The notes below the pieces were generated by a model that was not told the DNA's origin, searched no databases, and was given only the letters and a program-made list of their open reading frames with translations. From Escherichia coli (GTDB taxonomy: Bacteria > Pseudomonadota > Gammaproteobacteria > Enterobacterales > Enterobacteriaceae), in assembly GCF_003334315.1 (NCBI RefSeq), contig NZ_QOWR01000031.1: a stretch of DNA of 50,632 bases, one strand, 5' to 3'. A program made the translations under genes and the position numbers. Of this stretch, positions 5,140 to 25,886 are shown in pieces; positions within the stretch are counted from its first letter, which is position 1, and every line of letters begins with the position of its first letter.

Positions 5140-5171
5140 TTATTTCTTCGAATTCCTCTTTATAAGATAAT

Positions 5172-5855: not shown

Positions 5856-6961
5856 CGCGCCAACTTAAGTGCAGTCTTCGGTACACAGCTACAGCAAAGA
5901 ATGGTGCCATCATCGCCCATTGCTGATTTTTTCAGCGGCGTGACTTCGCCTTCTAAAAGCTGAACACGGCAACTTCCACAAATGCCCGCGCGGCAAGAAT
6001 AAGGGATACGAATTCCCTGATTTTCTAATTGCTCCAGCAACACCTGTTGGTTATTTCCACGAAATGCCTGTCCCTGCCAGTCAATATCTACATTTGCGTC
6101 CGGTTGTTGCGTGATGTTGGCGGTATCATCAGCGGCAGCTGCGCCGTAAATTTTTGCCGGAGCCGTTGCCAGAATTTCCACCTCATCGCCAACGCGAATC
6201 ACGCCGCTATTACGGGCAATTAAATTCTGACCAAAATCGACATCGCCGTTATCCTGGGCAGTGCGGAAAGATTGCAATGTTTTTAATGGTTCGCCTGCCG
6301 GATGTTTTTGCCCTTTTTCTGGGCTGACGGTGGTGAAAATACAGCGGCTACAAGGTTTAACCACATCAAACACCACATCACCAATGCGAATCACTTTCCA
6401 GCGATCTTCTTCCCAGGCTGACGCGCCGGAAACCACCAGATTGGGGCGGAATTGCTCCATTTTTACACTGGCCGGACAACGTTGTTGGAGATCACGTAAC
6501 GAGGCTTCGTTAGCAAGAAGGTAAGGATAGCCATCAGCAAATGACAGAGGTACAGTGTTGTGGCGTTTCACGCGCCGGGTCATTTGTGGCCCCACCCAGC
6601 GTAATTGCACTTCGCGGGAGAAAAATCCACTTAGCCATTTGTTGATCGCGTCTGGCGCAATTCGCGCGGTAAAATGTGTGCCCCAAACTTCGGTTGGTGC
6701 GTCTTGTGTGGCGAAATCAGCAAAACGAACATATGCGCTACTGCCATCTGGTGCGGTGAGATGCAAGCCATCATGCACAGGTGAAGGAGTAAACCGTACC
6801 ATCTGGGGAAACTGGCGAGCGGTAATAAACGTACCGTCAGGTTCCGTGATCATAAAGATGCGATCGAAGGCCAGACCACTGACATCTGCCAGAGCATGTG
6901 TAAGACCAATGCCGCGCATCGATTTAACAGGATGAATAAAAAGCCGGATTAATGTCGCCAC
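5852..6961 (-). CDS. ycbX: MOSC-domain / 2Fe-2S ferredoxin-domain protein YcbX
   Basis: 369-aa ORF; C-terminal cysteine cluster ([11 protein letters not shown]...CCSC) typical of a plant-type ferredoxin domain. Converges on zapC with overlapping stop codons. Confidence 0.9.
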
Positions 6962-7204
6962 GGTGCGGTCCTCAAATGAAAATAAGCCCTCAACTTTATG
7001 ACATGACGCGCTTATTAGCTATAATGCGCAACAATTTTCTTAGCGCCTGTCCCATTAGGCTATTTTATTTGTCAGTTTGGCCCTGGGTTATGCTCGAAAT
7101 CCTCACGTACTTGTGTACGCTCCGGTTTCTCCGCGCTGTCCATGTCCAGACTGACTGCAACAATTACGCCTACTGCGGTAGGCTCTTAGAGTAAAAGTGA
7201 CGAT

Positions 7205-9313
7205 ATGAATTCTCTGTTTGCCAGTACGGCCCGTGGGCTGGAAGAGCTGTTAAAAACTGAACTGGAAAACCTGGGGGCCGTTGAATGCCAGGTGGTTCAG
7301 GGTGGGGTCCATTTCAAGGGCGACACACGGCTTGTTTACCAGAGCCTGATGTGGAGCCGCCTGGCCTCGCGTATTATGTTGCCGCTGGGCGAGTGTAAGG
7401 TTTACAGCGATTTAGACCTCTATCTCGGTGTTCAGGCGATCAACTGGACAGAGATGTTTAATCCTGGCGCGACCATCGCTGTCCACTTCAGTGGTTTGAA
7501 TGACACCATCCGCAACAGTCAGTACGGCGCGATGAAAGTGAAAGACGCGATCGTCGATGCTTTCACGCGGAAAAATCTGCCGCGTCCAAATGTTGATCGC
7601 GATGCGCCGGATATCCGCGTTAACGTCTGGCTGCATAAAGAAACCGCCAGTATCGCTCTTGATCTGAGTGGTGATGGTTTACATCTGCGTGGCTATCGCG
7701 ATCGTGCTGGTATTGCGCCGATCAAAGAAACCCTGGCAGCCGCTATTGTGATGCGATCCGGCTGGCAGCCAGGAACACCGCTGCTCGATCCGATGTGTGG
7801 TTCCGGTACGTTGCTGATTGAAGCAGCGATGCTGGCGACCGATCGCGCACCAGGCTTGCACCGTGGGCGTTGGGGCTTTAGCGGCTGGGCGCAGCATGAT
7901 GAAGCTATCTGGCAGGAAGTGAAAGCGGAAGCGCAAACTCGCGCCCGTAAAGGCCTGGCTGAGTATAGCTCTCATTTTTACGGTTCGGACAGCGACGCAC
8001 GGGTGATTCAACGTGCACGCACTAACGCCCGTCTTGCGGGGATTGGTGAACTGATCACCTTTGAGGTGAAAGATGTCGCGCAACTGACCAATCCGCTGCC
8101 GAAAGGGCCGTACGGCACAGTGTTGAGCAACCCGCCATACGGGGAACGTCTGGACAGCGAACCGGCGCTGATTGCGCTGCATAGCCTGCTGGGTCGGATC
8201 ATGAAAAACCAGTTTGGTGGCTGGAATCTCTCTTTGTTTAGTGCCTCGCCGGATCTGCTAAGCTGCTTGCAGCTGCGTGCAGACAAACAGTACAAGGCGA
8301 AAAACGGCCCGCTGGACTGCGTACAGAAAAATTACCACGTTGCCGAAAGCACTCCAGACAGCAAACCGGCGATGGTAGCGGAAGACTACACCAACCGCCT
8401 GCGTAAGAACCTCAAAAAATTCGAGAAGTGGGCTCGCCAGGAAGGGATTGAATGTTACCGCCTGTATGACGCCGATCTGCCAGAATATAACGTTGCCGTT
8501 GACCGTTATGCCGACTGGGTGGTGGTGCAGGAGTATGCGCCGCCAAAAACTATTGATGCTCACAAAGCGCGTCAGCGTCTGTTCGATATTATCGCTGCAA
8601 CCATTTCGGTACTGGGGATTGCGCCAAACAAACTGGTGCTGAAAACCCGTGAACGCCAGAAGGGCAAAAACCAATACCAGAAACTGGGCGAGAAGGGCGA
8701 GTTTCTTGAAGTTACCGAATATAACGCTCACTTGTGGGTGAACCTGACGGATTATCTCGATACTGGTCTGTTCCTCGATCACCGCATCGCCCGTCGTATG
8801 CTCGGTCAGATGAGCAAAGGCAAAGATTTCCTCAACCTGTTCTCTTATACCGGCAGCGCCACCGTGCATGCGGGATTAGGCGGTGCACGCAGCACCACCA
8901 CCGTGGATATGTCGCGTACTTATCTGGAATGGGCAGAACGCAACCTGCGTCTGAATGGCCTGACCGGGCGTGCGCATCGCCTGATTCAGGCCGATTGCCT
9001 GGCGTGGCTGCGTGAGGCAAATGAACAGTTCGATCTGATCTTTATCGATCCGCCAACCTTCTCTAACTCAAAACGAATGGAAGATGCGTTTGATGTTCAG
9101 CGCGATCATCTGGCGCTGATGAAAGATTTGAAACGTCTGCTGCGTGCAGGTGGGACGATCATGTTCTCGAACAACAAACGTGGCTTCCGTATGGATCTCG
9201 ACGGCCTGGCAAAACTGGGACTGAAAGCACAAGAAATTACGCAAAAAACGCTCTCCCAGGATTTCGCCCGTAACCGCCAGATCCACAACTGCTGGCTGAT
9301 TACCGCAGCCTGA
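7205..9313 (+). CDS. rlmL: Bifunctional 23S rRNA methyltransferase RlmKL (m2G2445 / m7G2069)
   Basis: 702-aa ORF with two SAM-methyltransferase signatures ([14 protein letters not shown] and NPPYGERL). Confidence 0.92.
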
Positions 9314-9324
9314 AAGGAATAGTA

Positions 9325-11232
9325 ATGTCATTAATCAGTATGCATGGCGCATGGCTGTCGTTCAGCGACGCGCCGCTTCTCGATAACGCAGAACTGCATA
9401 TCGAAGATAACGAACGTGTTTGTCTGGTGGGCCGCAACGGCGCAGGCAAATCGACGTTAATGAAAATCCTCAACCGTGAACAAGGGCTGGATGACGGTCG
9501 CATTATTTACGAGCAAGATTTGATTGTAGCGCGTCTGCAACAGGATCCGCCGCGTAACGTTGAGGGTAGCGTTTATGATTTCGTTGCCGAAGGCATTGAA
9601 GAACAAGCGGAATATCTGAAACGCTATCACGATATTTCGCGCCTGGTGATGAACGACCCGAGCGAGAAAAATCTCAACGAACTGGCGAAGGTTCAGGAAC
9701 AGCTGGATCACCACAACCTGTGGCAGCTGGAAAACCGCATCAACGAAGTGCTGGCGCAACTGGGGTTAGATCCTAACGTTGCGCTGTCGTCGCTTTCCGG
9801 CGGCTGGTTGCGTAAAGCGGCATTAGGACGCGCGCTGGTGAGTAATCCGCGCGTGCTGTTGCTTGATGAACCGACAAACCACCTGGATATTGAAACCATC
9901 GACTGGCTGGAAGGGTTTTTGAAAACTTTCAACGGGACGATTATTTTCATCTCCCACGACCGTTCGTTTATCCGCAATATGGCGACGCGCATTGTTGATC
10001 TCGATCGCGGCAAGCTGGTGACCTATCCAGGGAATTACGACCAGTACCTGCTGGAAAAAGAAGAAGCCCTGCGCGTGGAAGAATTACAAAATGCCGAGTT
10101 CGATCGCAAACTGGCGCAGGAAGAGGTGTGGATCCGCCAGGGGATCAAAGCACGCCGTACCCGTAATGAAGGCCGCGTACGCGCCCTGAAAGCGATGCGT
10201 CGCGAACGTGGTGAACGTCGCGAAGTGATGGGTACCGCAAAGATGCAGGTGGAAGAGGCCAGCCGCTCCGGTAAAATCGTTTTCGAAATGGAAGACGTTT
10301 GCTACCAGGTTAACGGTAAGCAACTGGTGAAAGATTTTTCTGCCCAGGTTCTACGTGGCGACAAAATTGCCCTGATTGGTCCGAATGGGTGCGGCAAAAC
10401 CACGCTGCTAAAACTGATGCTCGGTCAGCTTCAAGCGGACAGCGGGCGTATTCACGTTGGCACCAAACTGGAAGTGGCTTATTTCGATCAGCACCGCGCG
10501 GAACTGGATCCCGATAAAACGGTGATGGATAACCTTGCCGAAGGTAAGCAAGAGGTGATGGTTAACGGCAAGCCACGCCACGTATTGGGCTATTTGCAGG
10601 ACTTTCTGTTCCATCCGAAACGGGCGATGACGCCGGTACGTGCGCTTTCTGGCGGTGAGCGGAACCGCTTGCTGCTGGCGCGTTTGTTCCTCAAACCAAG
10701 CAACTTATTGATTCTTGACGAACCGACCAACGATCTTGATGTCGAAACGCTGGAACTGCTGGAAGAACTGATCGACAGCTATCAGGGCACGGTATTGCTG
10801 GTTAGCCACGATCGTCAGTTTGTCGATAACACCGTTACAGAATGTTGGATCTTCGAAGGCGGCGGTAAAATTGGTCGTTATGTCGGCGGTTATCATGATG
10901 CCCGTGGTCAGCAAGAGCAGTATGTGGCGCTCAAACAGCCTGCGGTGAAAAAAACCGAAGAAGCCGCCGCGGCAAAAGCAGAAACTGTAAAACGCAGCAG
11001 TAGCAAACTAAGCTATAAATTGCAGCGCGAACTGGAGCAGCTACCGCAATTGCTCGAAGATCTGGAGGCGAAGCTGGAAGCCCTACAGACGCAAGTGGCG
11101 GATGCTTCCTTTTTCAGTCAGCCGCATGAGCAGACGCAAAAAGTGCTTGCTGATATGGCTGCTGCAGAGCAGGAGCTGGAGCAAGCCTTTGAACGCTGGG
11201 AGTATCTTGAAGCGTTAAAAAATGGTGGCTGA
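9325..11232 (+). CDS. uup: ABC-F family ATPase Uup
   Basis: 635 aa; two ABC domains with Walker A motifs (GRNGAGKST, GPNGCGKTT) and LSGG signature motifs; coiled-coil C-terminal tail. Confidence 0.95.
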   Translation: MSLISMHGAWLSFSDAPLLDNAELHIEDNERVCLVGRNGAGKSTLMKILNREQGLDDGRIIYEQDLIVARLQQDPPRNVEGSVYDFVAEGIEEQAEYLKRYHDISRLVMNDPSEKNLNELAKVQEQLDHHNLWQLENRINEVLAQLGLDPNVALSSLSGGWLRKAALGRALVSNPRVLLLDEPTNHLDIETIDWLEGFLKTFNGTIIFISHDRSFIRNMATRIVDLDRGKLVTYPGNYDQYLLEKEEALRVEELQNAEFDRKLAQEEVWIRQGIKARRTRNEGRVRALKAMRRERGERREVMGTAKMQVEEASRSGKIVFEMEDVCYQVNGKQLVKDFSAQVLRGDKIALIGPNGCGKTTLLKLMLGQLQADSGRIHVGTKLEVAYFDQHRAELDPDKTVMDNLAEGKQEVMVNGKPRHVLGYLQDFLFHPKRAMTPVRALSGGERNRLLLARLFLKPSNLLILDEPTNDLDVETLELLEELIDSYQGTVLLVSHDRQFVDNTVTECWIFEGGGKIGRYVGGYHDARGQQEQYVALKQPAVKKTEEAAAAKAETVKRSSSKLSYKLQRELEQLPQLLEDLEAKLEALQTQVADASFFSQPHEQTQKVLADMAAAEQELEQAFERWEYLEALKNGG

Positions 11233-11361
11233 TCGCAAAATAGTCGATTTAAACAGAGACAGCTGACAACGGTAAAATTGCCTGATGAACTGGGTTTATC
11301 AGGCATGAAAACCAACACTTTGTTAGTCATCTGTAAAATAGCGCATCATTAAGGAGTACCA

Positions 11362-12615
11362 ATGTGCGAACATCATCATGCCGCGAAGCACATCCTGTGC
11401 TCGCAGTGTGACATGCTGGTGGCGTTACCGCGCCTTGAGCATGGTCAGAAAGCGGCATGTCCCCGGTGTGGCACAACGTTAACCGTGGCGTGGGATGCCC
11501 CTCGGCAGCGTCCCACCGCCTATGCGTTGGCTGCACTGTTCATGCTGTTGCTGTCCAACTTGTTTCCTTTTGTGAATATGAACGTTGCAGGAGTTACCAG
11601 TGAAATTACATTACTGGAAATTCCCGGCGTGCTTTTTTCTGAGGACTACGCCAGCCTCGGCACCTTTTTCCTGTTGTTTGTGCAACTGGTTCCCGCGTTT
11701 TGTCTGATAACCATTCTGTTACTGGTGAATCGCGCGGAATTACCGGTCCGTTTAAAAGAGCAACTGGCACGGGTGCTTTTTCAACTCAAAACCTGGGGAA
11801 TGGCGGAGATTTTCCTCGCTGGTGTGCTGGTCAGTTTCGTTAAACTGATGGCTTACGGCAGCATTGGGGTAGGCAGCAGCTTTCTCCCCTGGTGTTTATT
11901 TTGTGTCCTGCAACTGCGCGCTTTTCAGTGCGTTGATCGTCGCTGGTTATGGGACGACATCGCCCCGATGCCAGAACTGCGCCAGCCGCTAAAACCAGGC
12001 GTCACGGGGATACGTCAGGGGCTGCGTTCGTGCTCCTGTTGTACGGCAATCCTTCCTGCTGATGAACCCGTGTGCCCGCGTTGTAGTACCAAAGGGTACG
12101 TTCGGCGTAGAAACAGCCTGCAGTGGACACTCGCGCTGCTTGTAACGTCCATCATGCTGTATCTTCCGGCTAATATTTTGCCCATCATGGTGACGGATTT
12201 ATTAGGCTCGAAGATGCCGTCGACGATTCTCGCTGGGGTCATTCTGTTATGGAGCGAAGGCTCTTATCCCGTCGCTGCGGTGATCTTTCTGGCCAGTATT
12301 ATGGTGCCAACGTTAAAGATGATCGCCATCGCGTGGCTGTGTTGGGATGCCAAAGGGCATGGCAAGCGCGACAGTGAAAGAATGCATTTGATTTATGAAG
12401 TTGTTGAGTTTGTAGGCCGCTGGTCGATGATTGACGTTTTCGTTATCGCGGTGCTCTCGGCGCTGGTGCGTATGGGAGGTTTAATGAGTATTTATCCGGC
12501 AATGGGTGCATTAATGTTTGCTTTAGTCGTCATAATGACAATGTTTTCTGCTATGACGTTTGACCCGCGTTTGTCGTGGGATCGTCAACCTGAATCAGAG
12601 CATGAGGAGTCCTGA
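11362..12615 (+). CDS. pqiA: Paraquat-inducible inner-membrane protein PqiA
   Basis: 417 aa, CxxC-containing N-terminus and multiple TM segments; followed by pqiB and pqiC. Confidence 0.92.
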   Translation: MCEHHHAAKHILCSQCDMLVALPRLEHGQKAACPRCGTTLTVAWDAPRQRPTAYALAALFMLLLSNLFPFVNMNVAGVTSEITLLEIPGVLFSEDYASLGTFFLLFVQLVPAFCLITILLLVNRAELPVRLKEQLARVLFQLKTWGMAEIFLAGVLVSFVKLMAYGSIGVGSSFLPWCLFCVLQLRAFQCVDRRWLWDDIAPMPELRQPLKPGVTGIRQGLRSCSCCTAILPADEPVCPRCSTKGYVRRRNSLQWTLALLVTSIMLYLPANILPIMVTDLLGSKMPSTILAGVILLWSEGSYPVAAVIFLASIMVPTLKMIAIAWLCWDAKGHGKRDSERMHLIYEVVEFVGRWSMIDVFVIAVLSALVRMGGLMSIYPAMGALMFALVVIMTMFSAMTFDPRLSWDRQPESEHEES

Positions 12616-12619
12616 CAGT

Positions 12620-14260
12620 ATGGAATCTAATAATGGGGAAGCCAAAATCCAGAAAGTGAAGAACTGGTCTCCCGTGTGGATATTTCCTATCGTCACGGCG
12701 CTCATTGGGGCCTGGGTTCTTTTTTATCATTACAGCCATCAGGGACCGGAAGTGACCCTGATCACCGCGAATGCGGAAGGAATTGAAGGTGGCAAAACCA
12801 CCATTAAAAGCCGTAGCGTTGACGTCGGCGTGGTTGAAAGCGCCACACTGGCTGATGATTTGACGCACGTTGAAATCAAAGCGCGGCTGAATTCCGGTAT
12901 GGAAAAATTGCTGCATAAAGACACCGTCTTTTGGGTGGTGAAACCGCAGATTGGTCGCGAAGGGATTAGCGGCCTGGGAACGCTGCTGTCTGGAGTTTAT
13001 ATCGAACTGCAGCCAGGCGCGAAAGGCAGCAAAATGGATAAATACGATTTGCTGGACTCGCCACCGTTGGCCCCGCCTGATGCGAAAGGTATCCGTGTGA
13101 TTCTCGATAGCAAAAAAGCCGGGCAGCTCTCGCCAGGAGATCCGGTGCTGTTCCGTGGCTATCGGGTAGGTTCGGTTGAAACCAGCACCTTCGATACACA
13201 AAAACGCAATATCAGCTATCAACTGTTCATCAATGCACCTTATGACCGACTGGTGACCAACAATGTTCGCTTCTGGAAAGATAGTGGCATTGCGGTTGAT
13301 CTGACGTCAGCAGGGATGCGTGTGGAGATGGGCTCATTGACAACGCTGCTGAGTGGCGGTGTCAGCTTTGATGTGCCGGAAGGTCTGGATTTAGGGCAGC
13401 CAGTGGCACCGAAAACAGCTTTCGTTTTGTATGATGATCAGAAGAGCATTCAGGATTCGTTGTACACCGATCACATTGATTATCTGATGTTCTTTAAAGA
13501 TTCGGTACGCGGTCTGCAACCGGGAGCTCCGGTAGAGTTCCGGGGTATTCGCCTGGGTACCGTAAGCAAAGTGCCATTCTTTGCGCCGAATATGCGTCAG
13601 ACATTTAACGATGATTACCGTATTCCGGTACTGATTCGTATCGAGCCAGAGCGGCTGAAAATGCAGCTTGGCGAAAATGCGGATGTTGTTGAGCACCTTG
13701 GCGAATTGTTGAAACGTGGTTTACGCGGATCGCTGAAAACCGGAAACCTGGTCACTGGTGCACTGTATGTTGATCTCGATTTCTATCCAAATACGCCTGC
13801 AATAACCGGTATTCGTGAATTTAATGGTTATCAGATTATCCCGACCGTTAGCGGCGGCCTGGCGCAAATCCAGCAACGACTGATGGAAGCGTTGGATAAG
13901 ATCAACAAACTGCCATTGAATCCGATGATTGAACAGGCAACCAGTACGCTTTCTGAAAGTCAGCGCACAATGAAAAACCTGCAAACGACGCTGGATAGCA
14001 TGAACAAGATCCTCGCTAGCCAGTCGATGCAGCAGTTGCCGACGGATATGCAGTCAACGTTGCGTGAATTGAATCGCAGCATGCAGGGCTTCCAGCCTGG
14101 CTCCGCAGCCTACAACAAGATGGTGGCGGATATGCAGCGCCTTGATCAGGTGTTGCGAGAACTGCAACCGGTGCTGAAAACGCTCAATGAGAAGAGTAAC
14201 GCGCTGGTATTTGAAGCGAAGGACAAAAAAGATCCAGAGCCGAAGAGGGCGAAACAATGA
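12620..14260 (+). CDS. pqiB: MCE-domain protein PqiB
   Basis: Track ORF 12560..14260 trimmed to the ATG at 12620 (MESNNGEAKIQK...), 546 aa; begins 5 nt after the pqiA stop. Confidence 0.9.
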   Translation: MESNNGEAKIQKVKNWSPVWIFPIVTALIGAWVLFYHYSHQGPEVTLITANAEGIEGGKTTIKSRSVDVGVVESATLADDLTHVEIKARLNSGMEKLLHKDTVFWVVKPQIGREGISGLGTLLSGVYIELQPGAKGSKMDKYDLLDSPPLAPPDAKGIRVILDSKKAGQLSPGDPVLFRGYRVGSVETSTFDTQKRNISYQLFINAPYDRLVTNNVRFWKDSGIAVDLTSAGMRVEMGSLTTLLSGGVSFDVPEGLDLGQPVAPKTAFVLYDDQKSIQDSLYTDHIDYLMFFKDSVRGLQPGAPVEFRGIRLGTVSKVPFFAPNMRQTFNDDYRIPVLIRIEPERLKMQLGENADVVEHLGELLKRGLRGSLKTGNLVTGALYVDLDFYPNTPAITGIREFNGYQIIPTVSGGLAQIQQRLMEALDKINKLPLNPMIEQATSTLSESQRTMKNLQTTLDSMNKILASQSMQQLPTDMQSTLRELNRSMQGFQPGSAAYNKMVADMQRLDQVLRELQPVLKTLNEKSNALVFEAKDKKDPEPKRAKQ

Positions 14261-14820
14261 AAAAGTGGCTAGTGACGATTGCAGCACTGTGGCTGGCCGG
14301 ATGCAGCTCCGGCGAAATTAATAAAAACTATTACCAGTTACCTGTGGTGCAGAGCGGTACACAAAGTACCGCCAGCCAGGGCAATCGTCTGTTATGGGTA
14401 GAGCAGGTCACTGTTCCTGACTATCTGGCGGGGAATGGTGTGGTTTATCAAACCAGTGATGTGAAGTATGTGATTGCCAACAACAACTTGTGGGCCAGCC
14501 CGTTGGATCAACAGTTGCGCAACACCCTGGTTGCCAACCTGAGTACGCAACTGCCCGGCTGGGTGGTTGCCTCCCAGCCTCTGGGAAGCGCCCAGGACAC
14601 GCTCAATGTTACCGTAACGGAGTTTAACGGTCGCTATGATGGCAAGGTCATTGTCAGTGGTGAGTGGCTGTTGAACCACCAGGGACAACTGATCAAACGT
14701 CCGTTCCGTCTGGAAGGATTGCAAACTCAGGATGGTTACGATGAGATGGTTAAAGTGCTGGCCGGTGTCTGGAGTCAGGAAGCCGCTTCTATTGCACAAG
14801 AGATAAAGCGTCTACCTTAA
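14257..14820 (+). CDS. pqiC: Lipoprotein PqiC (YmbA)
   Basis: 187 aa with lipobox LAGC near the N-terminus; 4-nt overlap with pqiB. Confidence 0.9.
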   Translation: MKKWLVTIAALWLAGCSSGEINKNYYQLPVVQSGTQSTASQGNRLLWVEQVTVPDYLAGNGVVYQTSDVKYVIANNNLWASPLDQQLRNTLVANLSTQLPGWVVASQPLGSAQDTLNVTVTEFNGRYDGKVIVSGEWLLNHQGQLIKRPFRLEGLQTQDGYDEMVKVLAGVWSQEAASIAQEIKRLP

Positions 14821-15075
14821 TTATAAAGATTTGTAAATATAACCGTCTCCGGTATGTTGCCTGAGGCGGTTTTTTTGTCTCTAACGTGCGGAAAAATTTG
14901 TTCCTCTTCACATTTTTTGTACAACCGACATGCCCGTGTAGCTCACAAATATGACAGTGGCGTGAATTTTGCGCATTGACGGCAGTTATGATTCGCGGTA
15001 TTGCTTAACTGTGATTGCACATTTAGTAATCACTGTTTTCTTTTCCACCAGAAACCAGTATGAGGGAAACGAGGC

Positions 15076-15243
15076 ATGAAGAGACAAAAACGAGATCGCC
15101 TGGAACGGGCACATCAACGTGGTTATCAGGCCGGCATCGCCGGACGCTCAAAAGAAATGTGTCCCTATCAGACGCTGAATCAAAGGTCACAATGGCTGGG
15201 AGGCTGGCGAGAAGCCATGGCGGACAGGGTAGTAATGGCCTGA
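15076..15243 (+). CDS. rmf: Ribosome modulation factor (55 aa)
   Basis: ATG at 15076 translates as MKRQKRDRLERAHQRGYQAGIAGRSKEMCPYQTLNQRSQWLGGWREAMADRVVMA. Below the 60-aa cutoff, so absent from the track; the listed ORF 15060..15257 is in a different frame. Confidence 0.93.
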   Translation: MKRQKRDRLERAHQRGYQAGIAGRSKEMCPYQTLNQRSQWLGGWREAMADRVVMA

Positions 15244-15260
15244 TTCTGTCTCTTTAAAAA

Positions 15261-15291
15261 GAAACCTCCGCATTGCGGAGGTTTCGCCTTT
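15261..15291. terminator. Bidirectional rho-independent terminator between convergent rmf and fabA
   Basis: Hairpin AAACCTCCGC-ATT-GCGGAGGTTT with T-runs on both strands. Confidence 0.7.
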
Positions 15292-15312
15292 TGATACTCT
15301 GTCTGATTATAA

Positions 15313-15831
15313 TCAGAAGGCAGACGTATCCTGGAACAGACCGACTTTCAGGTCGCTGGCGGTATAGATCAGACGACCATCAACCAGCACTTCGCCATCC
15401 GCCAGGCCCATAATCAGACGACGGTTAACAATGCGTTTAAAGTGAATACGGTAGGTCACTTTTTTCGCTGTCGGCAGTACCTGACCAGTGAATTTCACTT
15501 CGCCAACGCCCAGCGCGCGGCCTTTACCTTCGCCGCCCAGCCAGCCGAGGTAGAACCCTACCAGCTGCCACATTGCGTCCAGGCCCAGGCATCCCGGCAT
15601 AACCGGATCGCCAATAAAGTGGCATCCGAAGAACCACAGATCCGGATTGATATCCAGTTCTGCTTCAACATACCCTTTGTCGAAGTTACCACCCGTTTCG
15701 GTCATTTTGACCACACGGTCCATCATCAGCATGTTCGGTGCTGGCAATTGCGGGCCTTTAGCGCCAAACAGTTCACCGCGACCAGAGGCAAGAAGGTCTT
15801 CTTTTGTATAGGATTCGCGTTTATCTACCAT
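15313..15831 (-). CDS. fabA: 3-hydroxydecanoyl-ACP dehydratase/isomerase FabA
   Basis: Track ORF 15313..16029 trimmed to the ATG at 15831 ([30 protein letters not shown]...), 172 aa. Confidence 0.95.
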
Positions 15832-15869
15832 GTTCTCTGTAAGCCTTATTTTATTGAAGCACGCAGGAT

Positions 15870-15905
15870 AGCTAACACGTGTACGCTGAACAAGTCCGAT
15901 CAGTT
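15870..15905 (-). promoter_or_regulatory. fabA promoter operators: FabR palindrome and adjacent FadR box
   Basis: Minus strand reads AACTGATCGGACTTGTTC (FadR-like box) followed by AGCGTACACGTGTTAGCT (FabR palindrome), matching the fabA promoter as I recall it. The block abuts the ycbZ stop codon. Confidence 0.65.
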
Positions 15906-17660
15906 CGGAATAAACCAGTTCAGCCAACGTAATGGCCATGGAAAACGGTGACGTCCTTCCTGTTGCGATGCTTGCGCGATACGTTCCTGGATGGTTTGCA
16001 TCAGCGTCGTTTGGCCTTCGCCATCCCACACCAGATTTAATAATAACGGCAGTGCGTCAGTCACATCGTCTACTGCCCAGATGGTGAATTTGCCTTCTTC
16101 TACCGCTTTCACCAGTTCACTGTGAATACTTAAATGGCGAACGTTAGCTGTGGGGATAATGACACCTTGTTTCCCGGTTAACTCACGTTGCTGGCAAATA
16201 GCAAAGAAGCCTTCGATTTTCTCATTTAAACCACCGACCGGCTGGGCGCGACCGAACTGATCGACTGAACCTGTGATAGCGATACTCTGATTCACCGGCA
16301 CATCGGCGAGGGCGCTTATCAGGGCGCAGAGTTCAGCCATCGAGGCACTATCTCCATCAACTTCACTGTATGACTGCTCAAATGTCAGCGATGCTGAGAA
16401 GGGGATCTGTTGCTCAAGCTGTAGTTCCGACATCAGGAACGCTTGCATGATCATCATCCCTTTCGCATGGATATTGCCGCCAAGCTCCGCTTTGCGTTCG
16501 ATGTCGGTGAATTCACCATCGCCAATATGCACAACGCAGCTAATGCGAGAAGGTTCGCCAAAAGCGCGTGGATGACCCGGAAATTCAATGACCGAAAGGG
16601 CGTTAATTTGCCCGATGCGTTCGCCTTCGGTTTCAATCAGGATTTGCTCCTGAAGGATCTCATCCTGCATACGTTCAGCGAGGAAACCTTCGCGCCATTC
16701 ACGCTGCTGCAGCATTAAGTTTAGCTGCTCGCCGGAGAAGGTGTCGCCATCACACAGGGAGGCGACCTCTTTACACTGGCGGAGGATCCACTGCGGGCTA
16801 AGCGGAAGTGTTTCTTGTTCACCGGTGTAGCGTGCTGCTTCGCGGATAAGTATCGGCCAGGCATCCGCTCCCGGTGCAGGTAAGTGATTATGTCTGGCGG
16901 TAAATGTCACCCAGCGACACCACTGGGTTACTGACTCCGCATCGACAATCTGCAGAGTATCTTCAAATTCGCTATAAATAGCCTGCTCTGAAAGCTCTGG
17001 CTCCATCTCCTGGAAATCAGCCAATGATTCGCGTTCGCCTACCAGAATGACTTTCAGCTTCAATGGCATCGAAGGCACAGAGACGGGGAGAGGGCGCGAC
17101 TCATCAAACGCAACCCAGTCAAAACGCTCGCGGTTAACGATATTTTTCAGCCGCATCCACAGCAGAGGTTGCGCCAGCAGTGTACGCAAAGAGATGATGA
17201 GAATACCGCCATTTGCCTGATGCACCAGACCAGGCTGCAGGGTAATGTCGCCATTAAACTGGCGCAGGCAGCCAAAGAGTTGCTCCGCTTCTACCCAGTC
17301 GGCAGCGACAACTTGCGTTAAAGTCGCAAAATTATCATCTGCACTCACTGCGTGACGTAAGCGGATGGAGTGGCCGGAAACCTCATAGTGACCGCCCACC
17401 AGTTGGCCTGCATCGCTTTGTAGCGTACGCGCGGCATTGGCAATAAGATTCAGATACTCAGACTCTTCCGGGGCCTTCGCCAGCATAAAAGAGGAGGATG
17501 CTCGCGTATGCAGCAACTGCTCCAGCGCAAATTGCAGCCGCGGTTGAGTATCACTGAATAAAGGATCGTTTTCGTCAATCAAATGTGGCTGAGCAAATAT
17601 TTCCTGATAGCTATCGGTATCAGGAACCAGGTCACGCCATGCAAGTTTCGTAATGGTCAA
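15900..17660 (-). CDS. ycbZ: Lon-like protease homologue YcbZ (LonH)
   Basis: 586 aa; C-terminal Lon proteolytic-domain signature around GDSASMAE; no Walker A motif found by eye. Confidence 0.88.
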
Positions 17661-17845
17661 AGTTGATGTTTTTTAGTCTGTTGTCAAAGCCGCGATTATA
17701 CCGTAACCGGCACTACAGCACACGTAGAAAGCACCGACAATACTCCTGGCATGGGCGTTAAAGCTCACAGGATGGAGATTCTTTTCTTCACTGGCCTAAA
17801 AAGCTGATATTCTGTAAAGAGTTACACGGTAACATTGAGATCGCT

Positions 17846-18298
17846 ATGAAATATCAACAACTTGAAAATCTTGAAAGCGGTTGGAAATGGAAGTATCTGG
17901 TTAAGAAGCATCGCGAAGGGGAGTTAATCACCCGTTACATAGAAGCCAGTGCCGCCCAGGAAGCCGTCGATGTGTTGCTCTCGCTGGAAAATGAACCCGT
18001 GCTGGTAAATGGCTGGATTGACAAGCATATGAATCCGGAACTGGTCAATCGCATGAAGCAAACCATTCGGGCAAGACGAAAGCGCCATTTTAATGCGGAA
18101 CACCAGCATACGCGCAAAAAATCGATCGATCTGGAATTTATTGTCTGGCAACGTCTGGCTGGTCTTGCGCAGCGTCGCGGTAAAACGCTTTCTGAAACGA
18201 TTGTTCAGCTGATTGAAGATGCGGAAAACAAAGAGAAATACGCGAATAAAATGTCTTCTCTGAAGCAGGATCTGCAGGCATTGCTGGGTAAGGAATAA
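17846..18298 (+). CDS. matP: Macrodomain Ter protein MatP
   Basis: 150-aa [38 protein letters not shown]... matching MatP. Confidence 0.92.
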
Positions 18299-18328
18299 CT
18301 GACGAAAGTCAGTTCAATTTACTAAAGG

Positions 18329-18358
18329 CAAAAAAAACCCCGCAGCAGCGGGGTTTTT
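18329..18358. terminator. Bidirectional rho-independent terminator between convergent matP and ompA
   Basis: A-run, hairpin CCCCGC-AGCA-GCGGGG, T-run. Confidence 0.8.
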
Positions 18359-18373
18359 CTACCAGACGAGAAC

Positions 18374-19414
18374 TTAAGCCTGCGGCTGAGTTACAACGTC
18401 TTTGATACCTTTAACTTCGATCTCTACGCGACGATCCGGAGCCAGGCAGTCGATCAGTGCAGCACGCTGTTTCACGTTGTCACAGGTGTTGCCAGTAACC
18501 GGGTTGGATTCGCCCATACCACGTGCGGAGATCTTGTCTGCCGGGATACCTTTGGAGATCAGGTAATCAACAACAGACTGAGCACGGCGCTCGGACAGAC
18601 CCTGGTTGTAAGCGTCAGAACCGATGCGGTCGGTGTAACCCAGAACAACTACGGAACCGTCTTTCGGATCCAGGTTGCTCAGCTGGCTGTACAGCTGATC
18701 CAGAGCAGCCTGACCTTCCGGTTTCAGGGTTGCTTTGTTGAAGTTGAACAGAACGTCAGACTTCAGAGTGAAGTGCTTGGTCTGTACTTCCGGTGCCGGA
18801 GCTGGAGCCGGAGCAACTACTGGAGCTGCTTCGCCCTGACCGAAACGGTAGGAAACACCCAGGCTCAGCATGCCGTTGTCCGGACGAGTGCCGATGGTGT
18901 GTGCGTCACCGATGTTGTTGGTCCACTGGTATTCCAGACGGGTAGCGATTTCAGGAGTGATCGCGTACTCAACACCGCCAGCGAAGACCGGAGAAACGCC
19001 GGTGTCGTGGTTTTTACCATAAACGTTGGATTTAGTGTCTGCACGCCATACCATGCCACCCAGACGAGTGTAGATGTCCAGGTCGTCAGTGATTGGGTAA
19101 CCCAGTTTAGCGGTCAGTTGAACGCCCTGAGCTTTGTATGCACCGTTTTCAACGCTGCCTTTGTACGGCATACGACCTAACCAGTCGTAACCCATTTCAA
19201 AGCCAACATACGGGTTAACCTGGTAACCACCAAAAGCACCAGCGCCCAGTTGGTTTTCATGGGTCGGGCCATTGTTGTTGATGAAACCAGTGTCATGGTA
19301 CTGGGACCAGCCCAGTTTAGCACCAGTGTACCAGGTGTTATCTTTCGGAGCGGCCTGCGCTACGGTAGCGAAACCAGCCAGTGCCACTGCAATCGCGATA
19401 GCTGTCTTTTTCAT
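18374..19414 (-). CDS. ompA: Outer membrane protein A
   Basis: Track ORF trimmed to the ATG at 19414 ([21 protein letters not shown] signal peptide); APAPAPAP hinge and C-terminal OmpA domain; 346 aa. Confidence 0.97.
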
Positions 19415-19770
19415 TTTTTGCGCCTCGTTATCATCCAAAATACGCCATGAATATCTCCAACGAGATAACACGGTTAAATCCTTCACCGGGGGATCTGCTC
19501 AATATTAACTCTACCGATATCTTCGGCTTATGCCGAGCACCCCTGGCGATGTAAAGTCTACAACGTAGTTGAAAACTTACAAGTGTGAACTCCGTCAGGC
19601 ATATGAAAAAAAAGTCTTGTATAAGGTATGTTTAATCTTTTTTGTCAGCGACAATTTACAGAAGAGAATCGCGGAAACCGCTTCAGACAAGCCTCCGCAA
19701 GGAAAATTAGTCACGACTGAAAGCATTGGCTGGGCGACAAAAAAAGTTCCAGGATTAATCCTAAATTTAC

Positions 19771-20280
19771 TTAATGATACAAATTAGAGTGAATTTTTAG
19801 CTCGGAAAGTTGTCTCGTGGCGTGAGAGGATGCGCTTACCGGACGCATAATAAACCCCATAGCGTTACCTTCATTTGCCGCATCAACAAGTTCAGCATGC
19901 TCTTCTTCAGTCAAATCATCTGCCAACCAACCGATCACCACACTGTAATTGCCCGTGCGTAAAGCGCGAACCATTGACTCCACAGTGTGGCAAGGGGAGA
20001 GCTGGCTAATCTGCATTACTTTCGTTAAGGGTAGCCCAGATGCCTGAACCCATTCCCGACTCAGTTTTTGTTGCGGTGTTAACCAGAGTTGCCAGCGCGA
20101 TTGCTGACCGAGTTGCTGTAACAATGGCAACAGTAGAAGTTGCGTCATCATGGGCTGATCTTCGCGATAGACAACTTCACTGATAAGCCCGGCTGTAGTG
20201 TTTTCCGTAGAGACACGCGCAATTTTACTTGCTGCGGATGAGAACGACGAAGAACGATGTGCATAGCCTGAAGTGTACAT
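19771..20280 (-). CDS. sulA: SOS cell-division inhibitor SulA
   Basis: Translation [54 protein letters not shown]...; LexA box immediately upstream. Confidence 0.95.
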
Positions 20281-20303
20281 AATCAATCCAGCCCCTGTGA
20301 GTT

Positions 20304-20323
20304 ACTGTATGGATGTACAGTAC
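20304..20323 (-). promoter_or_regulatory. LexA operator (SOS box) of sulA
   Basis: TACTGTATGGATGTACAGTA: perfect CTGT-N8-ACAG palindrome 24 nt upstream of the sulA start. Confidence 0.85.
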
Positions 20324-20498
20324 ATCCAGTGACAACAAAGATCAACCCTATTTTCGGAAAGAGCCTCGCAAATTTTGTCGTTGGTGACGGGAAAACATAA
20401 ATTAATCTTGCCCCTTAAGAATAAGTTGCCTATTTTCGTAGTTAACGGATCCGTTAATGTGAATCATTCTTTTATGTTATGATTTTAAAAGGAATTTT

Positions 20499-21128
20499 AT
20501 GAAAAGCCTCTCCTATAAGCGGATCTATAAATCACAAGAATACCTGGCAACGTTGGGCACAATTGAATACCGATCATTGTTTGGCAGTTACAGCCTGACC
20601 GTTGACGACACGGTGTTTGCGATGGTTTCTGATGGTGAGTTGTATCTTCGGGCTTGTGAGCAAAGTGCACAGTACTGTGTAAAACATCCGCCTGTCTGGC
20701 TGACATATAAAAAGTGTGGCCGATCCGTTACCCTCAATTACTATCGGGTTGATGAAAGTCTATGGCGAAATCAACTGAAGCTGGTGCGTCTGTCGAAATA
20801 TTCTCTCGATGCAGCGCTGAAAGAGAAAAGCACGCGCAATACCCGGGAAAGACTGAAAGATTTGCCCAATATGTCTTTTCATCTGGAAGCGATTCTCGGG
20901 GAGGTGGGGATTAAGGATGTACGGGCGTTACGTATACTTGGGGCAAAAATGTGTTGGTTGCGACTGCGGCAGCAAAACAGTCTGGTGACAGAAAAGATTC
21001 TGTTTATGCTTGAAGGTGCCATTATCGGCATTCATGAAGCTGCGCTCCCGGTGGCACGCCGCCAGGAGCTTGCAGAATGGGCTGACTCTCTTACGCCGAA
21101 ACAGGAGTTTCCTGCGGAACTTGAGTAA
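20499..21128 (+). CDS. sxy: Competence regulator Sxy (TfoX)
   Basis: 209-aa ORF divergent from sulA; sequence matches Sxy/TfoX as recalled. Confidence 0.88.
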   Translation: MKSLSYKRIYKSQEYLATLGTIEYRSLFGSYSLTVDDTVFAMVSDGELYLRACEQSAQYCVKHPPVWLTYKKCGRSVTLNYYRVDESLWRNQLKLVRLSKYSLDAALKEKSTRNTRERLKDLPNMSFHLEAILGEVGIKDVRALRILGAKMCWLRLRQQNSLVTEKILFMLEGAIIGIHEAALPVARRQELAEWADSLTPKQEFPAELE

Positions 21129-23244
21129 TCTGGCGTTGCAGACGACCAATCTCAGGCAGTAATGCAATCAATAATCCAACTTGTTGTACGACCAGAGGTT
21201 CTTTGCTGTCTGCCCGTGGTTCAAGTTGCTGCATCCGCTGTTTCAGGCTAGCTAATGCCTCATTGACGCGTTCTTCATCAGCAGGTTGATGATGTAACGC
21301 GTCATCAACATAGCAAACTGCGTCATCAAGAAACGCCAGAATTTCAGGATTAGTTAACTGCTCCCGGTGAGCACCGAGGGCTGAGATATAGCTGGTAAAC
21401 GTATGGTTAAGGCACAGCAACCGAAACGCGGCTTCGCGAATTTGCGGGGTAACGTTCGGCTCGCTGGACATATTTGATACCACCGACGCCAGCTCAGCAT
21501 CACGGTTGTGTGCATCGCGGCGGGCAATACGATACGCCAGACGGTTATCACGCCCCTGATGGTATTGCTCCAGTATGGCATCGAGATACCGACAGTTGGC
21601 CTCTGTGGCGCGTTCGAGCATGCGCGGCAGATTGCGAAACTGCCAGTCAGGCCAGATGTAGCTCACTGCCGCCCACGCAATGGCACAACCAATCAGCGTA
21701 TCGATTACGCGAGGTAACGCTACTTCAAAACCTTCACCCAGTAAGTTAAAACACAGTAGCACCAAAAGTGTGATGAACATCGTTGCATGAGCGTATTGCA
21801 CGTTACGGAAGGCAAAAAAGAGCACGCCGGTAATAACCAGCAGCACCAGCTGCCCTTCCAGTGATGGCACAAACCACAGCACAGGAATGCCAATGGCGAT
21901 ACCTACCAGCGTACCAATAATCCTTAACTTCAGGCGGTGGCGCGTGGCGTTATAGTTTGGCTGGCAGACAAACAAACTTGTCAGCAAGATCCAATACCCG
22001 TGATGCATTCCGGTTATCTGAATGATGGCGTAGCCGAAGCACAACACCAGCGACATTCTTACCGCATGACGGAAGAGGGCGGATTCCGGCGTGAAGTGAC
22101 GGCTAAGACGCAGCCAGATATCACTCAACCCGTGCGGGCTGTCATCAGCGAGCTCATTTTCGTCATTATTATGGGGTAGTGCCTGGGCCTGTTCTGATTC
22201 AATTGTTGCCAGTTGGGCATCAATGGCGCGTAAATTGTTCAGCAAAAATCCCAGTGTTTTGAGTAAATCGGCGGGTGCGCCGTTATCGCGCATCCGCTCC
22301 AGCGCAGCATCAATATGCGTAAAAGCGCGCTCAAAATGCGGATCATGTTGATAAGGCTGACGCAACAAAATACAGCGTGACAGTTGCTGGCACGCCTGGC
22401 CCTGCATCGACATCAGCCGCTGAAAACGGAACAGCACGTCGCTGTGGCGAAAATGTTCACGCAATGTTTGATACTGAATATGAGAAGAGCTGGCACGCTC
22501 GTGAATATCCTGTGCGACAAAGTAATAATGCAGCGTGCGACGCGTTCCCCGTTGACCACGATCGCCACGTAAGCGGGTCAGCAGCGAGAGTTTCGTCTGA
22601 TTCAATGTCGCCATCAGCAGACCGTTGGCGAGAGCCAAATCGTACAGCGGTGCCTGGCTTTGATCTTCAATATCAGGATCAAACATGCGCGACTTGAGCT
22701 CAAGATAACGCGCCAGTTGTTCATAGCAACGCGCCAGGTTGTCCTGCAGCGGGCGGACCGGGAACAGCAGATGACCAATAAGTGTCAGGACGTTGTACCA
22801 GACGGCACCGGCCAGCAGATACATCGGCTGCTGATACCAGTGCTCATACAGTGATGTTCCCAACATAGTGTAAATGGCGATCAGCAATGCACCGAAGGCA
22901 ATTGTTGCATAGCGTTGACCCAGACCGCCGAGCAAAATGAAGCCGCTGGTAGAGAGCGTTAAGCCAATCGCAAATAGCCAGGGCCAGGGAAACAGCAATT
23001 CTACTGAGGCCGAGGCGATAAAAAAGCAGAACAGCGTAATGATGAGGTTACGCAAACGTCCCGCCAGTCGGTCATCGAGATCGGTCAGCGCCGCTGCCAC
23101 CATCCCCAGCGTTAGCGGAATCGTCAGTTTTACATCACCCAGCCACCACGGAAACGCTGTGGTTCCACAAAGCGCAATAAAAATACGCGCGTAATACAGC
23201 CAGGCGCTGTTCCAGGTATAGCGTTTGAGCAAAGGACTTAGCAT
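21091..23244 (-). CDS. yccS: Inner membrane protein YccS (putative transporter/efflux family)
   Basis: About 717 aa with two blocks of TM helices separated by a soluble region. Start may be 23253 (ATG three codons upstream); 3' end overlaps the sxy 3' end. Confidence 0.85.
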   Translation of the reverse strand: MLSPLLKRYTWNSAWLYYARIFIALCGTTAFPWWLGDVKLTIPLTLGMVAAALTDLDDRLAGRLRNLIITLFCFFIASASVELLFPWPWLFAIGLTLSTSGFILLGGLGQRYATIAFGALLIAIYTMLGTSLYEHWYQQPMYLLAGAVWYNVLTLIGHLLFPVRPLQDNLARCYEQLARYLELKSRMFDPDIEDQSQAPLYDLALANGLLMATLNQTKLSLLTRLRGDRGQRGTRRTLHYYFVAQDIHERASSSHIQYQTLREHFRHSDVLFRFQRLMSMQGQACQQLSRCILLRQPYQHDPHFERAFTHIDAALERMRDNGAPADLLKTLGFLLNNLRAIDAQLATIESEQAQALPHNNDENELADDSPHGLSDIWLRLSRHFTPESALFRHAVRMSLVLCFGYAIIQITGMHHGYWILLTSLFVCQPNYNATRHRLKLRIIGTLVGIAIGIPVLWFVPSLEGQLVLLVITGVLFFAFRNVQYAHATMFITLLVLLCFNLLGEGFEVALPRVIDTLIGCAIAWAAVSYIWPDWQFRNLPRMLERATEANCRYLDAILEQYHQGRDNRLAYRIARRDAHNRDAELASVVSNMSSEPNVTPQIREAAFRLLCLNHTFTSYISALGAHREQLTNPEILAFLDDAVCYVDDALHHQPADEERVNEALASLKQRMQQLEPRADSKEPLVVQQVGLLIALLPEIGRLQRQITQVPQETPVSA

Positions 23245-23262
23245 AAAGGCCATATTAGTGGA

Positions 23263-23709
23263 TTATTCAAAACGACGACGTGCATTGGCTTCACGCGCAG
23301 CTTGCGCTGTTTCTACCGATACCACGCGACGACCAACCGGCCATAGTGCAATAGCGGCAATTTTAAAGTTCGCAATGCCGACAGGAATGCCAATGATTGA
23401 AATACATTGTGCGATGCCCGTTGCAATGTGCATCAGGCATAACCACCAGCCAAAGAAAATCAGCCAGAAAATATTCAATACCGTACCGCCAGTATTCAGC
23501 AGCACATTTTTGCCAGCCGGGTTCAGTTCATCGACATGAATAGCTTCATTGCCATAAGGCACCAGAGACAGTTTAGTGATCTCCCAGCAGGATCGTGTCA
23601 GCGGTAAGGTAAAAATCAGCACAATACTGACCAGAGTCGCCAACAGCCAGCCCAGAGTGGTGGCAAATCCGCCAAGCACAAAGTTCAGAATGTTCAAAAC
23701 GGTACGCAT
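23263..23709 (-). CDS. yccF: Inner membrane protein YccF
   Basis: 148-aa hydrophobic ORF immediately upstream of yccS on the same strand. Confidence 0.85.
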   Translation of the reverse strand: MRTVLNILNFVLGGFATTLGWLLATLVSIVLIFTLPLTRSCWEITKLSLVPYGNEAIHVDELNPAGKNVLLNTGGTVLNIFWLIFFGWWLCLMHIATGIAQCISIIGIPVGIANFKIAAIALWPVGRRVVSVETAQAAREANARRRFE

Positions 23710-23831
23710 AAAACCTCGCTTTACTGTGGTTTTCAGTAATGGGCGGCAATTGTAACGTTTTTTTGGGCTGGAGCACGTTTTCTCTGACGGTTACACTGAT
23801 AAGAAATAATTTCGTGTGGATCTACAGAGTC

Positions 23832-25886
23832 ATGGAACTGAAAGCGACAACGCTTGGAAAACGTCTGGCACAGCACCCTTACGATCGGGCGGTGATCCTC
23901 AATGCCGGGATTAAAGTCTCCGGCGATCGCCACGAATACCTTATTCCTTTCAATCAATTACTGGCGATTCACTGTAAGCGCGGTCTGGTATGGGGCGAGC
24001 TGGAATTTGTACTGCCGGACGAAAAAGTGGTGCGTCTGCACGGCACCGAATGGGGCGAGACGCAGCGTTTTTACCATCATCTTGATGCTCACTGGCGGCG
24101 GTGGAGTGACGAGATGAGCGAAATTGCGTCTGGTGTTTTACGCCAGCAACTGGATTTGATTGCCACGCGCACTGGGGAAAATAAATGGCTGACGCGTGAG
24201 CAAACCTCTGGCGTGCAGCAACAAATCCGCCAGGCTTTGTCGGCGTTGCCGTTGCCGGTTAACCGACTGGAAGAATTCGATAACTGCCGTGAGGCGTGGC
24301 GTAAATGTCAGGCCTGGTTGAAAGATATTGAAAGCGCTCGGTTGCAGCATAACCAGGCGTATACCGAAGCCATGCTTACCGAGTATGCGGATTTTTTCCG
24401 CCAGGTCGAGTCTTCACCGCTGAATCCGGCGCAGGCCCGGGCAGTCGTTAATGGCGAGCATTCTCTGTTAGTGCTGGCAGGTGCAGGAAGCGGAAAAACG
24501 TCGGTGCTGGTGGCCCGTGCAGGCTGGTTGCTGGCGCGTGGTGAAGCGTCCCCTGAGCAAATTTTATTGCTGGCGTTTGGTCGCAAAGCCGCTGAAGAGA
24601 TGGACGAGCGGATTCGCGAACGGCTACATACCGAAGACATTACCGCACGCACGTTTCATGCGCTGGCGCTGCATATTATTCAGCAGGGCAGCAAAAAAGT
24701 TCCGATAGTCAGCAAACTGGAAAATGATACCGCTGCCCGTCATGAACTCTTTATTGCTGAGTGGCGCAAGCAATGCAGCGAAAAGAAAGCGCAGGCGAAG
24801 GGCTGGCGGCAATGGCTGACGGAAGAAATGCAGTGGTCAGTGCCAGAAGGTAACTTCTGGGATGATGAAAAATTACAGCGTCGCCTTGCCTCTCGCCTCG
24901 ATCGCTGGGTAAGTCTGATGCGGATGCACGGTGGTGCACAGGCAGAAATGATTGCCAGTGCACCCGAAGAGATTCGCGATCTGTTCAGTAAACGTATCAA
25001 GTTGATGGCCCCGTTATTAAAAGCCTGGAAAGGTGCGCTGAAGGCAGAAAACGCTGTCGATTTTTCGGGCCTTATTCATCAGGCGATTGTGATTCTGGAG
25101 AAAGGTCGCTTTATCAGCCCGTGGAAGCATATTCTGGTTGATGAATTTCAGGATATCTCGCCGCAGCGGGCAGCGTTGTTAGCGGCATTACGCAAGCAAA
25201 ACAGTCAGACGACGTTGTTCGCTGTTGGTGATGACTGGCAGGCGATTTACCGATTCAGCGGTGCGCAAATGTCGCTCACCACCGCTTTCCATGAAAACTT
25301 TGGTGAAGGCGAACGCTGTGATTTAGACACGACTTACCGTTTTAACAGTCGTATCGGTGAGGTGGCAAACCGGTTTATTCAGCAGAACCCAGGCCAGCTG
25401 AAAAAGCCGCTAAACAGCTTAACCAATGGAGACAAAAAAGCCGTCACGTTATTGGATGAGAGTCAACTTGACGCTTTGCTGGATAAGCTCTCTGGTTATG
25501 CCAAACCGGAAGAGCGCATTCTGATCCTGGCGCGTTACCATCACATGAGGCCTGCCAGCCTGGAAAAAGCGGCAACACGCTGGCCGAAGTTGCAAATCGA
25601 CTTTATGACCATTCATGCCAGCAAAGGGCAACAGGCGGATTACGTCATCATCGTTGGCTTGCAGGAGGGAAGTGATGGTTTTCCGGCTGCGGCGCGGGAG
25701 TCGATTATGGAAGAGGCGCTACTGCCACCGGTTGAGGATTTCCCGGACGCTGAAGAACGGCGGTTAATGTACGTGGCGCTGACCCGGGCACGCCATCGGG
25801 TATGGGCACTGTTTAACAAAGAGAATCCCTCTCCCTTTGTGGAAATACTGAAAAATCTGGATGTGCCGGTGGCGAGAAAACCGTAA
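23832..25886 (+). CDS. helD: DNA helicase IV
   Basis: Track ORF trimmed to the ATG at 23832 (MELKATTLGKRLAQHPYDRAVILNAGIKVSG...); UvrD-like Walker A GAGSGKTS; 684 aa. Confidence 0.93.
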   Translation: MELKATTLGKRLAQHPYDRAVILNAGIKVSGDRHEYLIPFNQLLAIHCKRGLVWGELEFVLPDEKVVRLHGTEWGETQRFYHHLDAHWRRWSDEMSEIASGVLRQQLDLIATRTGENKWLTREQTSGVQQQIRQALSALPLPVNRLEEFDNCREAWRKCQAWLKDIESARLQHNQAYTEAMLTEYADFFRQVESSPLNPAQARAVVNGEHSLLVLAGAGSGKTSVLVARAGWLLARGEASPEQILLLAFGRKAAEEMDERIRERLHTEDITARTFHALALHIIQQGSKKVPIVSKLENDTAARHELFIAEWRKQCSEKKAQAKGWRQWLTEEMQWSVPEGNFWDDEKLQRRLASRLDRWVSLMRMHGGAQAEMIASAPEEIRDLFSKRIKLMAPLLKAWKGALKAENAVDFSGLIHQAIVILEKGRFISPWKHILVDEFQDISPQRAALLAALRKQNSQTTLFAVGDDWQAIYRFSGAQMSLTTAFHENFGEGERCDLDTTYRFNSRIGEVANRFIQQNPGQLKKPLNSLTNGDKKAVTLLDESQLDALLDKLSGYAKPEERILILARYHHMRPASLEKAATRWPKLQIDFMTIHASKGQQADYVIIVGLQEGSDGFPAAARESIMEEALLPPVEDFPDAEERRLMYVALTRARHRVWALFNKENPSPFVEILKNLDVPVARKP

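Follow-up and report, generated by a model that had tools for sequence, protein, structure and literature searches.

Two annotated small genes, rmf and appX, beneath the 60-aa cut-off of an open reading frame track, and a very probably accidental 65-aa frame over rmf

Two real, annotated small genes, rmf and appX, lie under the 60-aa cut-off of the open reading frame (ORF) track of the Escherichia coli DNA analysed here (50,632 nucleotides, hereafter the window), and the 65-aa ORF drawn across rmf is an accidental reading frame and not a gene, a reading to which we assign a probability of roughly 0.97. Annotations and solved structures exist for both genes, and the finding is in that sense already known; their omission from the track is no more than the usual cost of filtering ORFs by length. 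The sequence-only reading had held that the track misses both genes and reports an out-of-frame ORF in place of rmf, and this proved correct, as at the default cut-off of 60 aa the track shows only the out-of-frame ORF at that locus. Lowering the cut-off to 20 aa exposed the 55-aa ORF as well.

Results

The window and its reference genome

The window is a segment of the E. coli chromosome that is 99.8% identical to strain MG1655 from position 1,000,640 onward. Window positions 199..49138 aligned to MG1655 1,000,837..1,049,777 with 99.83% identity over 48.9 kb and with identical numbering, and all 47 of the MG1655 protein genes checked in the aligned range were intact in the window (elfC, cut by the window start, was left out). 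Of the 195 ORFs in the window that reach 60 aa, 149 have no stop codon in common with any annotated gene.

Copies of IS1 in the same orientation stand at both window ends (1..204 and 50180..50632), bracketing the 50-kb segment as direct copies. The left copy interrupts elfC, and the right copy breaks cspG after codon 45, creating a 71-aa fusion ORF (50045..50260). The IS1D element found in MG1655 between gfcA and cspH is absent from the window strain and, taken with the arrangement of the IS1 copies, its absence indicates that the strain is not K-12. Rfam matches comprised the PyrD leader upstream of pyrD (4061..4134, plus strand, 97.9 bits), a cspA-type thermoregulator (49889..50209, plus strand), which is the cspG leader and is cut here by the IS1 insertion, and a tRNA-Ser; at the gathering threshold, Rfam returned nothing at rmf or appX.

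Identity and conservation of rmf

The features of the rmf locus are as follows.

15076..15243, plus strand: rmf, coding sequence of the ribosome modulation factor, 55 codons plus TGA
15062..15066, plus strand: Shine-Dalgarno (SD) sequence of rmf, GAGGG, found by direct reading, 9 nt before the ATG
15011..15033, plus strand: conserved leader hairpin of rmf (5' end), GTGATTGC..GTAATCAC
15261..15285, no single strand: bidirectional intrinsic terminator of the convergent rmf and fabA, 11-bp G+C-rich stem with T runs on both strands
15060..15257, plus strand: shadow ORF of 65 aa (+2 frame of rmf), the sole ORF of at least 60 aa over the locus

The real gene had been placed at 15076..15243 as a 55-codon rmf, and a translation that failed to match Rmf in a database search had been named as the outcome that would overturn this. 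The product did match. The 55-aa translation, MKRQKRDRLERAHQRGYQAGIAGRSKEMCPYQTLNQRSQWLGGWREAMADRVVMA, is identical at 55/55 residues to the ribosome-bound E. coli RMF chain in PDB 6h4n_v, a small basic protein of ~55 aa, and PDB 4v8g_AV matches it over residues 1-55. Against the NCBIfam RMF equivalog (NF011162) it scored 92.1 bits (E = 1.4e-26), well clear of the cut-off of 40, and the RefSeq coordinates of MG1655 rmf (b0953) are the same. The surrounding 1.2-kb region was found in all 5426 of 5426 complete E. coli genomes, and the best 10 matches listed all carry the rmf annotation in the order pqiC, rmf, fabA.

We fetched 80 rmf loci from ~40 genera of Enterobacterales, ranging from Escherichia to Pantoea, Erwinia, Dickeya and Pectobacterium. 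The rmf ORF was intact and of the same length in each of the 79 loci where the region aligned. Nei-Gojobori counts of 78 orthologues against the window sequence gave a pN/pS of 0.20 in the rmf frame, indicating purifying selection, and variable alignment columns fell on rmf codon positions 1, 2 and 3 in the proportions 23/19/50.

RMF attaches to the 30S subunit close to where 16S rRNA has its 3' end, and there it blocks the anti-Shine-Dalgarno region. It promotes dimerisation of 70S ribosomes in stationary phase, and HPF completes the hibernating 100S ribosomes. By family knowledge and the solved 100S and 70S-RMF structures, the window protein would have the same role (PMC8778775): rmf would yield the 55-aa RMF which, once bound to 30S and blocking the anti-SD, would lead through 70S dimers to hibernating 100S particles in stationary phase.

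Leader, Shine-Dalgarno sequence and terminator of rmf

The rmf SD is predicted to form an anti-SD duplex of -6.1 kcal/mol, close to the -5.8 that is the median among annotated genes in the window. It lies in a segment, ATGAGGGAA, that is nearly invariant across 25 genera, and the region from ~-135 to -1 of rmf (window 14940..15075) is conserved more than the third codon positions of rmf in Enterobacterales. The stem-loop at 15011..15033 shows compensatory changes across genera (one pair, for example, is GC in 11, AU in 6 and GU in 4), and the folding of the leader alone was no better than that of shuffled sequences (z = -1.3). [quoted passage not shown] An invariant UUUCC (~15042..15046) pairs in the predicted fold with GGGAA of the SD segment; such pairing could sequester the SD. 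The terminator shared with fabA is highly conserved.

The published transcription start of rmf lies 58 nt before its ATG (PMC6134199), which puts ATG 15060, the start of the 65-aa ORF, inside the transcribed leader, and which would land within the leader hairpin. A simple sigma-70 scan upstream of rmf found no promoter; a conserved TTGACG at 14976 is a candidate -35 element only.

Identity of appX

The features of the second small gene are as follows.

39806..39898, plus strand: appX (cbdX), coding sequence of the accessory subunit of cytochrome bd-II, 30 codons plus TAA
39791..39797, plus strand: SD sequence of appX, TAAGGAG, overlapping the appB stop TAA, 8 nt before the ATG

The sequence-only reading had described a 30-codon, single-transmembrane AppX between appB and appA with its own SD, and each element of this description held. 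The gene sits between the end of appB (39793) and the start of appA (39978), directly following appC and appB on their strand, and its RefSeq coordinates (b4592) are 39806..39898. Its translation, MWYLLWFVGILLMCSLSTLVLVWLDPRLKS, is identical at 30/30 residues to chain C of PDB 7ose and also identical to 7oy2_X, from cryo-EM of bd-II, and it scored 80.8 bits against the NCBIfam CbdX equivalog (NF011333, cut-off 57). The best 19-residue hydropathy mean, 2.49 over residues 4-22, is consistent with one membrane-spanning helix. In the bd-II quinol oxidase, AppC and AppB are joined by AppX as a third, single-helix subunit, which is a paralogue of CydX. Within the appCBXA operon, appX would be translated from its own SD to give the 30-aa single-transmembrane-helix subunit of AppC-AppB-AppX.

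The anti-SD duplex of appX was predicted at -8.3 kcal/mol. The gene is listed among AUGUG starts with the SD UAAGGAG and no predicted frame ambiguity (PMC9841429, Table 2). This AUGUG start also holds a GTG at 39808 that opens a 46-aa ORF in the +2 frame, running to 39948, and a start there is formally possible. Over appX, the 60-aa track shows a 90-aa antisense ORF (39669..39941, minus strand). Between appX and appA, an inverted repeat (GCCTGATGCG at 39908..39917 and CGCATCAGGC at 39930..39939) has the appearance of a REP element.

Published initiation profiling

Ribosome profiling had been proposed as a check on the small genes. Stringer et al. reanalysed retapamulin ribosome profiling (Ribo-RET) of E. 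coli BL21 (bioRxiv 10.1101/2021.07.02.450978), and the portion of their Table S1 considered here covers the plus strand to ~1.13 Mb in growing cells, in which rmf is poorly expressed. BL21 coordinates were taken as MG1655 +5089, judged from the sequences in Table S1. In that portion of the table, an initiation peak (IERF) of 16.4 RPM stands at the rmf ATG and one of 4.76 RPM at the appX ATG (bioRxiv 10.1101/2021.07.02.450978), and the latter is listed against both the appX ATG and GTG 39808. The ATG 16 nt upstream of rmf is paired with none of the peaks in this portion, the lowest of which are given at 0.64 RPM.

The same portion of Table S1 contains other initiation signals in the window. Near the 3' end of pqiA, in-frame internal starts at 12472, 12484 and 12514 have 12.7, 7.1 and 6.8 RPM; a protein begun at the first (12472..12615, plus strand) would be a hydrophobic C-terminal isoform of 47 aa, MGGLMSIYPAMGALMFALVVIMTMFSAMTFDPRLSWDRQPESEHEES. 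Within pqiC, the 'start-stop' ATGTGA at 14468..14473 (plus strand), which is out of frame, has a strong peak of 40.3 RPM, compared with 23.3 RPM at the pqiC start, and a second ATGTGA occurs 9 nt upstream, at 14459.

Intergenic scan for further small genes

The sequence-only reading had cautioned that micro-ORFs might be hidden in intergenic regions that it had not searched exhaustively (for example 17661..17845, 19415..19770 and 31074..31499). The caution was reasonable, and a scan found nothing convincing to fill these regions. All ORFs of at least 8 codons that start in intergenic regions were collected and scored for an SD, and ORF intactness across the 80 loci was assessed for the 5-25 kb portion of the window (5076..25243). 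This gave 298 start-to-stop ORFs, 22 of them with an SD-like sequence. No candidate combined an SD (scored in all intergenic regions) with a conserved frame and a codon-like substitution pattern (cross-species, 5-25 kb).

Between ycbZ and matP (17661..17845), we found only SD-less ORFs that are intact in a minority of loci. The ompA-sulA spacer (19415..19770) likewise holds only SD-less ORFs: two of them, 19418..19450 and 19602..19558 (minus strand), are intact in most aligned loci and follow the conservation of the ompA leader and promoter, as does the conservation of the others. For the serT-hyaA spacer (31074..31499), SD scoring of the single sequence left two short ORFs whose signals are weak and one 33-aa ORF that lies over the serT promoter. 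The 33-aa ORF (31188..31087, minus strand) has its SD 15 nt away and overlaps the serT promoter TTTACA-17-TATAGT.

Several other candidates were rejected. The apparent SDs of 14875..14979 and 15291..15413 are 3' arms of the pqiC or rmf terminator hairpin. For an 18-aa ORF with a good SD (30963..30907, minus strand), both the SD and the ATG belong to the stem-loop of the serT terminator (30977..30951). That hairpin, AAGGGGTTAGC-TAAAT-GCTAACCCCTT, mimics an SD followed by an ATG and so produces a false ORF. ORF 20398..20348 (minus strand) has an SD spacing of 12 nt and is not conserved. A 12-codon ORF with a TTG start (7034..6996, minus strand) scored as 'intact' in 62/67 loci, but it consists of two invariant blocks round a fully variable 8-nt spacer, a pattern that is not codon-like. 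These blocks, AAAATTGTTGCGCATTATAGCTAATA and ATGTCATAAAGTTGA, belong to a segment upstream of ycbX (6991..7041, minus strand) and are near-invariant in ~60 Enterobacterales sequences, and the remainder of the ycbX-rlmL spacer is unalignable. To judge from this pattern, the segment looks like a conserved ycbX promoter or operator.

It is therefore improbable, in our estimate, that further functional intergenic genes of less than 60 aa have been missed by both the track and the annotation. The number of ORFs scanned, with 22 SD-like sequences among them, leaves some room for such genes, as does the scope of the data, since the cross-species comparison spanned 5076..25243 only and the Ribo-RET portion the plus strand only. 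Against this, the curated MG1655 annotation, which includes small proteins validated by ribosome profiling, has only rmf (b0953) and appX (b4592) below 60 aa in this range, and the 5-25 kb region yielded no ORF with the three properties together. The best-looking candidates (14875, 15291 and 30963) turned out to be terminator hairpins, with 31188 overlapping a promoter, and intergenic plus-strand peaks in the Ribo-RET portion are absent or below 2 RPM.

The 65-aa reading frame over rmf

The claim that the 65-aa track ORF is in the wrong frame was borne out by conservation, by the substitution pattern and by the published initiation profiling. It lies on the same strand as rmf in a different frame (15060 mod 3 = 0, 15076 mod 3 = 1), with starts 16 nt apart. 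Inside rmf, the frame is free of stops in 33 of the 80 Enterobacterales loci (those of E. coli and E. albertii and a further 31), and it is interrupted in the remaining 47. Stops fall at at least nine different positions (offsets 17, 26, 68, 74, 101, 107, 113, 143 and 149, and others), and so many different offsets indicate that they were gained independently. The pN/pS of the 65-aa frame is 1.56, in contrast to 0.20 in the rmf frame, and most of the variation hits the first positions of its codons; the frame thus showed no purifying selection. The product matched no NCBIfam family, and upstream of ATG 15060 there is no SD, with a duplex of 0.2 kcal/mol (about 0). Given the 149 comparable unannotated ORFs in the window, the 65-aa ORF represents background, no more than would be expected by chance.

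The one feature of this ORF that is well conserved is its start, as ATG 15060 is kept in 73/80 loci. These three bases are the first of ATGAGGGAA, and the ATG is conserved because that near-invariant leader segment, with its SD, contains it. In Erwinia and Biostraticola, AAG or GAG replaces the ATG while GAGGG is retained, and from these sequences constraint appears to act on the SD and not on an upstream start. On this reading, the 65-aa ORF lies in the +2 frame of rmf and is free of stops by accident, its ATG forming part of the leader/SD segment ATGAGGG. As a caveat to this verdict, the ATG is conserved and, if transcription starts at -58, lies in the leader, so that translation from it is possible.

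Three ways in which the ATG or its frame could matter were weighed. The AUG might be a regulatory start from which out-of-frame ribosomes pass the rmf start and lower RMF synthesis, as its retention in Enterobacterales and the conservation of the leader beyond that of rmf third codon positions would allow; we hold this to be very unlikely, since no SD precedes the AUG, no IERF is given for it in the BL21 Ribo-RET portion, and the Erwinia and Biostraticola loci keep the SD and not the AUG. We are just as sceptical that the AUG is used out of frame in other conditions, such as stationary phase, where it would tune RMF or yield an Escherichia-specific 65-aa basic peptide. Least credible of all is a real overlapping gene through which the rmf mRNA would yield a second protein, for although its frame is open in 33 loci, its ATG is kept within the transcribed leader and its exact product has been deposited on three GenBank contigs, the scattered stops, the pN/pS above 1, the missing SD and family match, the lack of a Ribo-RET peak in a table portion with peaks down to 0.64 RPM, and the explanation of the ATG by the leader segment all speak against it, and the deposits are automatic calls.

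In GenBank, the exact 65-aa wrong-frame product is found on 3 contigs, against at least 1000 contigs with the true Rmf. One of these entries, ACT70914.1 from E. coli O157:H7 TW14359, is mislabelled, carrying the 65-aa product under the name "ribosome modulation factor".

Implications

Our results leave knowledge of rmf and appX unchanged; their value is one of quality control. A track with a 60-aa cut-off hides a ribosome hibernation gene and the gene for an oxidase subunit, showing a wrong-frame ORF for the one and an antisense ORF over the other. As the wrong-frame product has entered GenBank, once labelled as the true gene, users of such tracks should check any short ORF with a good ribosome-binding site.

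Comparison with known systems

The Rmf protein is the same in the window strain as in MG1655, and over 48.9 kb (99.83% identity) no more than scattered SNPs separate the two strains. The neighbours of E. coli rmf b0953 are the same as in the window (pqiC upstream and the convergent fabA), and its SD, conserved leader and common terminator are likewise as described here. AppX corresponds in full to AppX/CbdX of bd-II as solved in 7ose and 7oy2, with an identical 30-aa sequence, the same place after appC-appB and before appA and a single hydrophobic helix, and no differences between the two were detected. CydX, the small subunit of bd-I (YbgT family, TIGR02106), has its gene immediately behind those of the two large subunits of its oxidase, as does AppX, and AppX, a paralogous single-helix subunit, aligns with it over residues 1-24. 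The window AppX scored 18.9 bits against TIGR02106, below its cut-off of 31.6, which marks it as the bd-II paralogue and not CydX. Finally, the 65-aa ORF resembles other shadow ORFs in its position on the same strand in a shifted frame, its lack of an SD, its unconserved frame and its pN/pS above 1; it differs from them in having an unusually conserved ATG, which lies in the rmf leader, and in the occasional deposit of its product as a protein in GenBank.
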